A stretch of 64,000 nucleotides of DNA from an uncultured Nitrospirales bacterium. GTDB taxonomy: Bacteria > UBA10199 > JADGCS01. Location: positions 265,318 through 329,317 of the forward strand of contig CAZSTS010000001.1 in NCBI GenBank assembly GCA_964609965.1. The letters are read 5' to 3'. Below the pieces are notes generated by a model that ran no database searches, was not told the origin of the DNA, and was given only the letters and a program-made list of their open reading frames with translations. Within the stretch, counting starts at the first letter, position 1; every line of letters begins with the position of its first letter. Made by a program: the position numbers and the translations under genes. Positions 40,532-44,389 of this stretch are shown piece by piece.

Positions 40532-41329
40532 ATGCTTACTAGAGCCATACAACAAAGTTTTGCTTCACTTGTAACTCCATTAGAAACCATTGCAGTTCAA
40601 GATCCAGGAGTTCAGCAAGTTATCATACAAGGACTTAATGCTGCACTGAGCGTAACTCCATTTGCAGAAGGCCATAGGGGTCAATATGCTCATCTTACAG
40701 GACAAGATGGTTCTATAGCACCAGCCTTTTTAGCGTGGAATCTGCGGAAAGCTCATGTCGCTCTTGGATACACACCGAATGACCGAGTAATCCTTGAACA
40801 AGTGGCCTTTGATATAACACATACTGACATCCCTCCTGTTGTTGGTATGGTCACATCATCATACTCATACCTGCTTGTAAATTCCGGAAATCCACGTGTG
40901 AAAGATGGTCGATCCGGCCTAACCTTACCAGGCAGTGTTGTTCACAATGCAAGTTTTCCTTTTGCAAGAGTTCATCAGCAAATTATTCAAGAAGATCGTT
41001 TTGATCTTGATGCGATTCTCATGCAAGCAGGTGTTAGCTCTGCAGCTGAGTTCAGTGAATTATGGACCAAATTTGATAAAAGCATAGATGAACTAGAATT
41101 AAGTGTAAGAACTAGAAATGCTATTCAAAATGCTAACATTGTTTATATTGGTGAACTTGTGCAAAAAACAGAAGTTGAATTACTCAAAACCAAAAACTTT
41201 GGTCGTAGATCCTTAAATGAGATTAAAGAAGTCCTTGAAGATATGTTTGGCCTTTCACTAGGCATTGATGTTGGAGAGTGGAGAGCACCAAATGTACGAC
41301 CTGCTGGCAGTAGTATTCAAGGGCATTAA
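40532..41329 (+). CDS. Orphan alpha-CTD protein A: novel N-domain + RNA polymerase alpha C-terminal domain
   Basis: C-terminus [58 protein letters not shown] closely resembles RpoA alpha-CTD. The N-terminal ~175 aa are shared only with the paralogues at 42378 and 43344. Confidence 0.75.
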
Positions 41330-41399
41330 ATTGCTAGTGTATTCTTGATTGCATCTCATCAAATCTTATGGTATTATTATTTTATATTAAGGTAATACC

Positions 41400-41681
41400 A
41401 TGATATTTAGCTTTAAACTCAGTCCTGCCCTTTTAGAAAAACTTCAAGTGTGTGCGCAAGATTTCGGTGAATCTAAAGGCACTCTTATCAGACATGCCCT
41501 CGAAGAATATCTCGAAAAGAACAAAGACTTCAAATCCCGCATCAAAAAACTTACAGACAAACTCAAAAAACCTACTAAAAAAACAAAAACAAATTGGGAA
41601 TCAATCTATAATAATACGCGTTGTGATTTAGACGAAGCTCCAGAACAAGAAGTCTTGCGCGTCCGTAGAAGGGGTTTATGA
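41400..41681 (+). CDS. Ribbon-helix-helix (CopG/VapB-like) antitoxin
   Basis: 93 aa. N-terminal RHH-like text (FKLSPALLEKLQVCAQDFGESKGTLIRHALEEYL). 4-nt ATGA overlap with the downstream PIN gene. Confidence 0.6.
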   Translation: MIFSFKLSPALLEKLQVCAQDFGESKGTLIRHALEEYLEKNKDFKSRIKKLTDKLKKPTKKTKTNWESIYNNTRCDLDEAPEQEVLRVRRRGL

Positions 41682-42124
41682 AAAAAGCCTTTATCGATTC
41701 TGACGTGTTTATTCGTGACTTGCGTTATCCAAGAGATAAAAAAACAAAAACAAACACACTTTTTCTCAAAAAAGTAAAATCAGGCAAGATTAAAGCCTAC
41801 ACTTCAATCTTTAATATCTTAGAAATCTGCGGCATTCTTTCTTATAATCTTTCCCAAGAGCAGCTCATAAAACTCTATAGTGAATTTTGTGCTCATTATG
41901 GTGTAAAAATTCTCTTCCCTGCAGATAGCACTGGGAATCTTGACTATGACATTGCCACGATCTTTAAACAAATATCTCACAAGCAATCATTCGGTGATGC
42001 TCAAATCTCTTATGTCATCGATCGCTTTAAAAACGACATTTCATCATTCATATCCTGGAATGCCAAACACTTTGAGGGTAAGATCCCTTTTCCTTGTTTA
42101 ACCCCAGAATCGTATATGAAGTAG
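41678..42124 (+). CDS. vapC: PIN-domain toxin (VapC-like)
   Basis: MKKAFIDSDVFI (first acidic residue), later D/E positions and C-terminal SWNAKHF typical of PIN. Coupled to the RHH gene. Confidence 0.6.
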   Translation: MKKAFIDSDVFIRDLRYPRDKKTKTNTLFLKKVKSGKIKAYTSIFNILEICGILSYNLSQEQLIKLYSEFCAHYGVKILFPADSTGNLDYDIATIFKQISHKQSFGDAQISYVIDRFKNDISSFISWNAKHFEGKIPFPCLTPESYMK

Positions 42125-42155
42125 GGGCAGGCCCCTGTGCCTACCCGTTTTTTTT
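42121..42155 (+). terminator. Rho-independent terminator after the TA pair
   Basis: Imperfect GC-rich hairpin GTAGGGGCAG..CTGTGCCTAC followed by a T8 run (42148-42155). Confidence 0.6.
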
Positions 42156-42377
42156 ATGATCGAAATCTTTGGGCGACCACAGGGGGTCGCCCCTACAAAA
42201 ACCTAATTTGCCGTTAGGCAAAACATTACCCCCCCCACGCTGTACCCTGTACGTAGTATGCAAGACACCCCACCCTGTGTACACTCTGAACACGAAAATT
42301 GCACATCCAACGCAACATTTTCTCAAATCTCTCTGATAACAAGCTAGACAGTTCGAAGAATTTTATTAGGAGGGAAT

Positions 42378-43142
42378 ATGGTTTCACCTGCTGTTCAAAG
42401 TAGTTTTCCTGCAATAGGAGGCTCGTTAGAGGCAATTGCTGCCCTTGATTCTAGAATTCAGGTTCAGTTCATTGATTCAATGAATACAGCACTTGATTTA
42501 GTTACCATTGGGGGAGTCCGCAGAAGTCAATTTGCTCATATGACAGGAAAATATTCTGATCCACGTCCAGTTCATCTCACTTGGGATATTAATCAAGAAC
42601 TTTCTGCCCTTGGTTTAGCTCCAGGCGATACCCTGCCCGATAGATTACGTTTTGATCTAGCACGTGAAGAGGTTCCACCAGCTGTGGCCATACTCACCGC
42701 ATCCTTTACGTACCTCGTCGTAGATTCTAATCAACACGCTATTCAGGATGGTGCATTGGGATTAAATGTACCAAGAAGACTTGGTCACGATCCAAAATTT
42801 CCTTATGTAAAAGTTCATCAACACCTGACTCATGTAGATCGTTTTGATATGAATAGATTTGTGGCAGATGCATCAGCTGGACTTACACCTGCATCTACTA
42901 GTTTTTGGAATAGCTTAGATAAATGTATAGATGATTTTGAACTAAGTGTAAGAGCTAGTAACTGTCTACAAAATGCCAATATAAAATATGTCGGTGAACT
43001 TGTGCAAAAAACAAGAACTGAATTACGTAAAATAAAGAATTTTGGAAGGAAAACCATAGACGAAGTGGTAGATGTAATTCTCACACCACTGGGTCTTTCC
43101 CTTGACATGGATGTCCGTGGCTGGACACCGCCTTCTAAATAA
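42378..43142 (+). CDS. Orphan alpha-CTD protein B (paralogue)
   Basis: C-terminus [68 protein letters not shown]. N-domain is homologous to A and C ([27 protein letters not shown], DRFDM). Strong RBS AGGAGGG. Confidence 0.75.
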   Translation: [254 protein letters not shown]

Positions 43143-43215
43143 ATAAACTCCATTTTTCCCTGGAATCAAAATCCCAGGCTCTAGCATTTTGTCCCTCTGG
43201 GACAACAGCATAAAG

Positions 43216-43235
43216 CCGGAGACTTCAGTCTCCGG
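43216..43235. promoter_or_regulatory. 20-bp palindrome CCGGAGAC-TTCA-GTCTCCGG upstream of paralogue C
   Basis: Perfect 8+4+8 inverted repeat. Its core GGAGAC-N4-GTCTCC has the same geometry as GGACAC-N4-GTGTCC. It could alternatively be the terminator hairpin of gene B, but no T-run follows. Confidence 0.4.
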
Positions 43236-43343
43236 AACGATTGAGCTGCTTTCTCCAGAAAACAGAAACTCTCATTTTTTAGAAACATTCTCCTTAAATT
43301 CACTAATAATAAATTTGATAAATATCATTTATGGAGAAACGGC

Positions 43344-43940
43344 ATGATTTCAAAGGCTATACAACAACATCTGACTTCATTGGTCGGACCTTTAACAAGT
43401 ATTTCTAAGTTTGATAGTGGAGCACAAGAATTAATGATAAGAGGAATGAATGCTGCTCTTGGTATTGGCGTAACTCCATTTTCAGGTAAACATAGGGCTC
43501 AATATGCTCGTATTGTAGGAGAAGACAGAAGTGCTAAACCTGCCTACCTAGCCTGGAATATTGATAGATCACTAGCAGCTCTTGGATTTTCACCAGGCGA
43601 CAGAATGCCCGCAAGAGTGCATCTAGATTTAATACACGAGGAACTCCCTCCAGTTTTAGCTATAGTCACTCCATCATATTCATTTCTTTTAGCAAACTCT
43701 GGAAATGAATTTGTCCAAGACGGAGACTTAGGAATTACCCTTCCAGACTCGCTTCCCCATGATGATTCTTTTCCTTTTGTAAGAACTCATCAACTACCTC
43801 TCCAAGCAGATCGCTTTGACCTTCAAACAATCTTGGCCTTAACGGGTTTTTCAGAACTTTCGTTAGAGGACGATTCATTTTCCACTGACAGTGCCTTAAT
43901 AAAAAACTTGATAAACCAATCACTGACCTTCTTCATCTAA
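43344..43940 (+). CDS. Orphan alpha-CTD protein C, N-domain segment (frame 0; stops at 43938-40)
   Basis: The N-domain is about half identical by eye to protein A (HRAQYARIVGEDRSAKPAYLAWN, PPVLAIVTPSYSFLLANSGN, FPFVRTHQ, DRFDL). The frame ends 31 nt after an A_AAA_AAC heptamer. Confidence 0.7.
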   Translation: MISKAIQQHLTSLVGPLTSISKFDSGAQELMIRGMNAALGIGVTPFSGKHRAQYARIVGEDRSAKPAYLAWNIDRSLAALGFSPGDRMPARVHLDLIHEELPPVLAIVTPSYSFLLANSGNEFVQDGDLGITLPDSLPHDDSFPFVRTHQLPLQADRFDLQTILALTGFSELSLEDDSFSTDSALIKNLINQSLTFFI

Positions 43941-44389
43941 TAGAGGATCTTGCCCATAGAAGAATAGCACAAAAGGCTTTTGAGACACTCGAAATCCGTT
44001 ACATTGGTGACCTCATTCAACTCACAGAAAAAGAACTTCTCAAAGCACGTAACTTTGGTCGAAAATCTTTATGGAGTGTGAGAGGCACTCTAAATGAAAT
44101 GGATCTTGATCTTGGAATGTCAAATACAGAAGGTTGGTCACGGCCAGTTCAAGGAAGAGTACATTTTAACAATAAAATAGGAACACTAGATATATCTGTA
44201 AAAGCTGAAACCCTCTGTGCTCAAGCTGGCATTACCTACATCGGTGAACTTGTACAAATGACAGAAAGAAATCTTTTTCATACGAAAATCCTTGGTCGTC
44301 ATTGCATATCCGACCTCCGTGAAGCTCTTGCTGAACTAGGACTTAGCCTTAATATGGATGTTCAAGGCTGGACACCGCCAACATCCTAA
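43889..44389 (+). CDS. Orphan alpha-CTD protein C, C-terminal segment (-1 frame) with two alpha-CTD-like repeats
   Basis: The frame is open from 43889: ..KKLDKPITDLLHLIEDLAHRRIAQKAFETLEIRYIGDLIQLTEKELLKARNFGRKSLWSV.. and ..LDISVKAETLCAQAGITYIGELVQMTERNLFHTKILGRHCISDLREALAELGLSLNMDVQGWTPP. There is no plausible independent start/RBS before 44078. Confidence 0.65.
   Translation, partial: QCLNKKLDKPITDLLHLIEDLAHRRIAQKAFETLEIRYIGDLIQLTEKELLKARNFGRKSLWSVRGTLNEMDLDLGMSNTEGWSRPVQGRVHFNNKIGTLDISVKAETLCAQAGITYIGELVQMTERNLFHTKILGRHCISDLREALAELGLSLNMDVQGWTPPTS

Follow-up and report, generated by a model that had tools for sequence, protein, structure and literature searches.

The array and its alpha-CTDs

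The 64,000-nucleotide stretch of DNA analysed here (the window; contig CAZSTS010000001.1 of an uncultured Nitrospirales bacterium) carries, at positions 40532-44389, a tandem array of three related genes, in which a shared N-terminal domain of ~170 aa (the N-domain) is joined to the alpha subunit C-terminal domain (alpha-CTD) of RNA polymerase (RNAP). A preliminary description of this DNA had placed open reading frames (ORFs) at 40532-41329, at 42378-43142 and, for a split third gene, at 43344-44389, and these coordinates are correct, the third gene comprising ORFs 43344-43940 and 44078-44389. The features of the array, including a pair of small genes between the first and second copies, are as follows:

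40532..41329, + strand: copy 1, 265 aa; N-domain aa 1 to ~165, variable linker ~166-182, alpha-CTD 183-253, short tail
41400..41681, + strand: small RHH (CopG/RelB-like) protein, antitoxin-like, between copies 1 and 2
41678..42124, + strand: 148-aa ORF, 4-bp overlap with the RHH gene, toxin-like by position only
42378..43142, + strand: copy 2, 254 aa; N-domain, linker and alpha-CTD as in the other copies, most divergent paralogue
43344..43940, + strand: copy 3, zero-frame ORF, 198 aa, N-domain and linker, ending at TAA 43938-43940
43889..44389, + strand: copy 3, -1 frame, 166 open codons, two degenerate alpha-CTD repeats

The three products are mutual paralogues, in line with the preliminary description: their full-length identity, taken to copy 1 after joining copy 3 across its frame change, is 40-51%, and their N-domain identity 33-52%. 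The N-domain of copy 2 shares 33-39% of its residues with those of the other copies, and that of copy 3 is 51% identical to that of copy 1. Between the conserved DRFD(L/M) block and the CTD, the linker differs in length and sequence in every paralogue, which argues that it is flexible, as in alpha. Each copy is preceded by its own Shine-Dalgarno-like sequence, so that expression of each is likely. The locus is identical in sequence across five independent assemblies (JGI, ENA, Logan) and is therefore not an assembly artefact; 20 apparent mismatches in one of them (L003) correspond to a run of N. Samples with the locus include JGI 3300009374 and 3300007755, ENA ERZ23499127 and SRR8062344.

The C-terminal ~70 aa had been read as an alpha-CTD, and a PF03118 search gave significant matches for all three products. 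Copy 1 matched over aa 179-236 (nt 41066-41239; E=4e-23, 81.3 bits), copy 2 over aa 179-233 (nt 42912-43076; E=6.8e-22, 77.4 bits) and the second repeat of copy 3, in its last ORF, with E=2.5e-9 and 37.1 bits. All three scores lie above the gathering threshold of 23.8 bits; the first repeat of copy 3 is detectable by alignment only. The solved structures that match best are alpha-CTDs (E=5.5e-24). When the family profile was aligned with twelve genuine RpoA sequences using hhalign, family columns 173-253 corresponded to the CTD together with the last part of the alpha linker (64% identity, probability 99.9%), with copy 1 aligned over aa 174-253. The preliminary description had estimated by eye that about half of the positions agree with the E. 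coli alpha-CTD. The E. coli sequence and its numbering, checked against PDB chains, map to alpha residues 256-329, and over this region copy 1 is identical at 37/65 positions and copy 2 at 33/67.

The residues equivalent to the contacts of alpha with UP-element DNA, together with those of the 261 and 287 surfaces, are listed below for the three copies and for a fourth family member encoded on another contig (P0002, 254 aa, 49% identical to copy 1):

Copy 1: R265 R, N268 N, G296 G, K298 R, S299 S; E261 kept; residues 285-289 TEVEL, identical to E. coli
Copy 2: R265 R, N268 N, G296 G, K298 K, S299 T; E261 kept; residues 285-289 TRTEL
P0002: R265 R, N268 N, G296 G, K298 R, S299 S; E261 kept; residues 285-289 TEAEL
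Copy 3, repeat a: R265 I and N268 K (MAFFT alignment), then G, K and S; 5-residue insertion near helix 1
Copy 3, repeat b: R265 K, N268 T, G296 G, K298 H, S299 C; N294I

The statement that the UP-element contacts R265, N268, G296, K298 and S299 are conserved thus holds for copies 1 and 2 and fails for copy 3, in which both repeats are degenerate; a manual alignment of repeat a retains R at position 265 and still loses N268. The 265 determinant is also retained in P0002. The CTD of copy 1 agrees with a distant genuine alpha-CTD at 46/67 positions and with those of its own paralogues at 40/71 and 46/69. Being equally close to both, it appears to be held under RpoA-like constraint. Among the matches listed, no RpoA is more than 71% identical to it, and a recent origin by copying from any sampled rpoA is improbable.

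These proteins are nevertheless not RpoA, as had been recognised. Because the alpha N-terminal assembly domain (alpha NTD) is absent, they cannot be counted as polymerase subunits. NCBIfam RpoA models score them at 72-109 bits against whole-protein cut-offs of 228-302, with the match confined to the last ~80 positions, and the products do not pass as TIGR02027/PRK05182 equivalogs (best 108.8 against 302 bits, and 73.8 against 227.8 bits). The surroundings differ as well: the preliminary description had denied an rpsK-rpsD-rpoA-rplQ context, and whereas genuine rpoA loci (L012 and L033) show the rpsM-rpsK-rpsD-rpoA-rplQ cluster, the neighbours here are ORFans, the RHH pair, a HAD gene and ClpA/ClpS. 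Since the alpha NTD is required for RNAP assembly, we infer that the genome must hold a bona fide rpoA at another place. This host gene was not located; the RpoAs with the most similar CTDs (P0076 and P0012) come from other organisms, and were rejected as candidates on their GC contents of 43% and 58% and tetranucleotide correlations of 0.53 and 0.46.

The frame split in copy 3

The third copy carries two CTD repeats, as had been observed, and both lie in the -1 frame relative to the N-domain ORF. The elements of the junction are:

43901..43907, + strand: A_AAA_AAC heptamer, in the phase of the zero frame; from here homology continues in the -1 frame
About 43913-44146 and about 44171-44386, + strand: the two CTD repeats of copy 3, in the -1 frame

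With its phase checked, the heptamer is an in-phase slippery sequence of the X_XXY_YYZ type inside the overlap of the two frames, and the frame change amounts to a single base exactly at this site, in a sequence identical in four assemblies. A -1 shift at the heptamer would produce SALIKN joined directly to LDKPI, whose counterparts in copies 1 and 2 are, by alignment, LWTKFDKSI and FWNSLDKCI. The -1 frame is open over 43889-44389 for 166 sense codons, a stretch left free of stops in 1/200,000 composition-matched shuffles, and its first start codon is the GTG at 44078.

The junction is reminiscent of dnaX-type or IS-type -1 frameshifting, and of transcriptional slippage, in that A_AAA_AAC stands exactly where the frame has to change. 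It differs from the frameshifting systems in lacking significant downstream RNA structure (fold of 43895-44010, z=-1.08) and any upstream Shine-Dalgarno-like element visible in the sequence, and the split is accounted for just as well by a plain A7-to-A6 deletion as by slippage. Copy 3 has no orthologues, and all assemblies are identical clones. The simplest reading is a one-base loss in the A7 run; copy 3 could then be a recent pseudogene, a stand-alone N-domain followed by a remnant, or a gene that ribosomal or transcriptional slippage rescues at a low level.

The state of copy 3 also bears on whether the whole family might be debris, that is, decaying and non-functional duplicates of a chance fusion gene in a variable region. 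The frameshift, the loss of DNA-contact residues from both CTDs of this copy and the confinement of the family to one lineage would all fit such decay. On the other hand, copies 1, 2 and P0002 are intact at 33-50% identity, implying that their frames have been maintained over a long time, their CTD invariants are retained, and even the CTD frame of copy 3 has stayed open over a length that shuffled sequences scarcely ever match. We consider decay an improbable account of the family.

Copies 2 and 3 further resemble each other at their 3' ends (43088-43132 and 44335-44379, encoding GLSL.MDV.GWTPP), where DNA identity reaches 80% over 45 nt and exceeds that of the remaining gene lengths; local gene conversion may have been at work.

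The N-domain and the chromosomal setting

The N-domain, common to all family members, had been described as unassignable, and it has no match in Pfam, NCBIfam, PADLOC, PHROGs or the sequences of the PDB, lenient thresholds included. It had also been said not to resemble the alpha N-terminal assembly domain, and the possibility that it is a diverged alpha NTD was rejected: its profile, aligned with the twelve-sequence RpoA profile in hhalign, gave a probability of 0.09%, and there was no PF01000 or PF01193 match at E<=10.

A word-indexed search of 5.8 billion proteins found the N-domain in copy 1, copy 2 and P0002 only. An exhaustive HMMER search, covering 1.84 billion cluster representatives, returned the three copies of the window and one further protein, P0124, which we rejected as spurious: it is eukaryote-like with four repeats, four weak stretches add up to its score, and it collects unrelated Pfam noise as well. 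No N-domain match appeared in tblastn searches of phages and plasmids, in IMG/VR scans or in GTDB species genomes scanned with the N-domain of copy 1. The known family has four members, copies 1-3 and P0002, is apparently restricted to one lineage, and has the architecture of a novel N-domain, a flexible linker and an alpha-CTD that is canonical in copies 1, 2 and P0002.

AlphaFold2 models built on the four-sequence alignment were unusable, with a predicted local distance difference test score (pLDDT) of 48 for the N-domain and 41 for the full-length protein. Foldseek with the low-confidence N-domain model (pLDDT 48) gave no match at E<=0.001. Its top matches were UEV domains (E 0.13-0.24, TM 0.20-0.28), and this E2/UEV lead was dropped after hhalign against three E2 sequences returned a probability of 0.25%.

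P0002 lies in a different setting (L008 10822-12040), beside an XRE/HTH_3 gene and a pair made up of a 69-aa ORF and, after it, a Fic-domain (Doc-like) gene, and its locus has no other gene in common with the window array. The tetranucleotide signature of its contig correlates with that of the window at r=0.93, compared with 0.89-0.93 within the window and 0.58 for the relative with the 75% identical ClpA (below), and the database holds no ClpA of 76-99% identity. On these two grounds the same genome most probably carries P0002 as a fourth paralogue. Its toxin-antitoxin (TA)-like flanks echo the RHH pair inside the array.

The array itself forms part of a variable chromosomal slot:

34879..36102, + strand: 407-aa ORF, conserved left flank of the slot, no Pfam family
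36103..44442: variable chromosomal slot, holding two ORFan genes and the array, between the conserved 407-aa and 250-aa ORFs
36369-39275, + strand: 968-aa lipoprotein-like ORFan, inside the slot
39272-40402, - strand: 376-aa ORFan with predicted membrane segments, inside the slot
44443..45195: 250-aa ORF, conserved right flank of the slot

The window, at ~39% GC, belongs to a diderm bacterium of a marine lineage, with BamA, 6S RNA and ClpS/ClpA. Its nearest RibBA is 74% identical (unclassified metagenome-assembled genomes) and its nearest other ClpA proteins are 75% and 73% identical. Both ClpA relatives (L032 and the contig of P0127) keep the order M23 peptidase, PP2C, PmbA, 407-aa ORF, gap, 250-aa ORF, 299-aa ORF, HAD, ClpA, ClpS, and in both the flanks of the slot are kept at 55-58% identity. 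There is no PF03118 gene in the gap of either, and tblastn, which recovered orthologues of the flanking genes at 45-58% identity, gave no match of 36103-44442 to the two relatives. In its place they carry an unrelated 385/387-aa gene, with an additional 559-aa gene in the P0127 contig. The preliminary description had taken the array to be accessory rather than housekeeping, and its absence from two relatives with conserved flanking synteny places it in a variable slot and bears this out.

Two further arguments that had been offered for an accessory regulatory or interference module, a raised GC content and shared upstream palindromes, are both wrong. The three genes have 40.2-40.5% GC, neighbouring genes 40.8-41.9% and the window 38.8%; GC at third codon positions is lower in the three genes (0.23-0.27 compared with 0.32 +/- 0.05), and their codon usage is otherwise typical of the window. 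K-mers shared between the upstream regions do not exceed shuffle controls, the TAGAATTCTA palindrome occurs in front of copy 1 only, and copy 1 and P0002 share just a AACGAAAGGAT stretch at the ribosome-binding site. Promoter-like and terminator-like sites occur at chance level.

Between the 376-aa gene and copy 1, which are oriented divergently, the TAGAATTCTA palindrome is followed by a second TTAGAATTCTT (40415-40440). This site, which is not common to the other copies, could be an operator.

The insertion of a TA pair into the array had likewise been proposed, and the arrangement is TA-like. The RHH protein is assignable (Pfam RHH_1, E=4.4e-5, 23.7 bits against a 20.5-bit cut-off; PHROG CopG-like repressor, E=4.6e-8) and overlaps the next ORF by 4 bp, whereas its 148-aa partner matches no toxin family, having no match in Pfam (E<=10), NCBIfam, PADLOC, PHROGs or the PDB. 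Just 3' of the pair is a GC-rich inverted repeat (42121-42139/42178-42196; 19 nt, 84% complementary, 38-nt spacer), whose arms stand out in a 39%-GC genome and which may be a terminator or an insertion-boundary repeat element.

At the left edge of the slot, a full-length cobalamin riboswitch (34516-34703, + strand, 106 bits) lies directly upstream of the 407-aa ORF. This ORF, which a relative shares at 58% identity, may be an uncharacterised B12-related gene with a role in, for example, transport or binding. Elsewhere in the window, a 6S RNA gene is found at 20073-20254 (+ strand, 82 bits, full-length model match).

Possible action in trans and known systems

UP elements and class I activators have their main docking site in the alpha-CTD. 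The preliminary description had suggested that the proteins act as decoys, as anti-activators or as occupants of UP elements, and these roles are plausible as hypotheses. The layout of the family imitates that of alpha, with a globular N-domain, a flexible linker of variable length and an alpha-CTD, and it would have originated by fusion of the linker end and CTD of RNAP alpha to a new ~170-aa N-terminal domain. We tentatively favour, while holding it to be somewhat less than an even prospect, that these are accessory proteins that bind UP-like DNA in trans and interfere with UP- and activator-dependent transcription. Copies 1, 2 and P0002 would bind A/T-rich, UP-element-like DNA beside promoters, and possibly alpha-CTD partners; the N-domain would allow oligomerisation or have a sensory or effector role; and UP-element- and alpha-CTD-dependent transcription would be modulated by competition with, or occlusion of, the polymerase's own tails. 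Binding in trans to UP-like DNA seems the most economical account because the three intact members keep the minor-groove determinant, most alpha-CTD invariants and an alpha-like tether. Other orphan alpha-CTD proteins in mobile-element-like contexts and the alpha-CTD-like domain of PglW (both below) are consistent with it.

Several observations weigh against this reading. The DNA-binding residues overlap with those needed for the fold and for partner contacts, so their conservation cannot separate DNA binding from protein binding. Models of the N-domain and of the full-length protein have low confidence (pLDDT 48 and 41). The regions upstream of the genes showed no operator-like motif in common. 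The assemblies are identical and the population is clonal.

The family could instead be a protein decoy or sponge, in which the free alpha-CTD titrates host activators, sigma region 4, or late-gene activators of phages and mobile elements, acting as an anti-activator or in defence by sequestration, with the diverged copies covering different targets. Phage activators such as P2 Ogr need the alpha-CTD, and phages reportedly modify alpha or cleave it (Rac). Copy 1 retains most of the 261 and 287 surfaces (D-E-L-E, T-E-V-E-L), and copy 2 and P0002 retain part of them; the family has multiplied and diverged within a variable slot that also holds TA-like genes; and further tandem-CTD orphans lie in phage-like or mobile settings. 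These surfaces are, however, conserved for structural reasons too, a pure sponge has no obvious need of a conserved 170-aa N-domain, and PADLOC and PHROG matches are limited to the local similarity of the CTD to PglW. We regard titration of this kind as unlikely.

A more elaborate role in immunity would make the alpha-CTD an integrated decoy, baiting phage factors that bind or modify alpha (for example by ADP-ribosylation at R265) and triggering an effector in the N-domain. The bait residue R265 is kept in three paralogues, the genes lie in a variable island with an adjoining TA-like pair, and PglW and the T5orf172 (GIY-YIG-like) CTD proteins illustrate recruitment of the alpha-CTD into conflict-type proteins. 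Set against this, the N-domain displays no effector signature, conserved Cys or clear catalytic motif; in PADLOC-DB neither it nor the neighbouring genes match a defence system, the sole match being that of the CTD to PglW; and the window array and the P0002 locus have no effector gene in common. A sensor of this design is a poor prospect.

Nor do we give much credence to an RNAP-associated factor whose N-domain would dock on the RNAP core or sigma, add a differently tuned alpha-CTD and retarget the holoenzyme to a subset of promoters. The domain, linker and CTD plan that mimics alpha and the canonical CTDs would suit such a factor, but the N-domain resembles no known RNAP-binding domain, and the family, being absent from close relatives, does not belong to the conserved transcription apparatus. 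A compound proposal, in which a new trans-acting alpha-CTD mimic (immune decoy or sponge, or competitor of UP-dependent transcription) has an N-domain of novel fold and activity and copy 3 makes a double-CTD fusion through A_AAA_AAC slippage as a recoding or phase switch, is a long shot when taken with all its parts.

If the family acts in trans on promoters or on alpha-CTD-targeting factors, it would represent a new route of transcription control or interference, and would also suggest a function for the orphan alpha-CTD architectures scattered through metagenomes; an ordinary DNA-binding regulator would be a modest result. The family offers a compact, testable case, with a canonical alpha-CTD, a flexible tether and an N-domain without relatives among about 15 billion proteins, and an accessory region has kept several diverged copies of it. 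The finding is both real and unusual; the family is confined to one uncultured lineage, and the mechanism is what we infer from its sequences. In the literature searched, nothing describes a role for an alpha-CTD freed from the polymerase, and we found no paper characterising a stand-alone alpha-CTD fusion.

Among known systems, RpoA itself is the closest to the C-terminal part. The last ~80 residues of the family are 49-69% identical to genuine alpha-CTDs (PF03118, E. coli ~249-329) and include the linker end, both helix-hairpin-helix motifs and, in copies 1, 2 and P0002, the 265 determinant. The family differs from RpoA in having no alpha NTD and no ribosomal-operon context, in being multi-copy and in being absent from relatives.

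PglW of BREX type 2 consists of a kinase followed by a helical alpha-CTD-like domain, which has been read as a nucleic-acid-binding component (PMC12839542). The family CTD shows a weak local likeness to PglW positions ~800-858 (PADLOC E 9e-4 and 6e-5). Beyond this match nothing recalls PglW: a kinase, wHTH or STAND module was not found, nor were BREX-type neighbours, and the family is not a BREX component.

The nearest parallels in architecture are other orphan alpha-CTD proteins, which combine T5orf172 with two or three CTDs (P0003-P0010), TPR with two CTDs (P0028, P0047) or an unrecognised N-terminus with two CTDs (P0011). As in the present family, the CTD has parted from the alpha NTD and forms the C-terminal end of another module. 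Like that of copy 3 it is often doubled, and the genes likewise lie in accessory or mobile-like contexts; their N-terminal modules are unrelated to the N-domain described here. P0011 (L037 8001-8726) is located among about 35 small ORFs that run in one direction, a phage-like arrangement with an AcrVA2-like gene in it, and P0005 (L036 8001-8951; T5orf172 and two CTDs) beside genes for an M78 peptidase, SRAP and a Y-family polymerase. Such settings suggest that mobile elements repeatedly recruit the alpha-CTD. Detached alpha-CTD proteins already occur, and what is new here is the partner N-domain.

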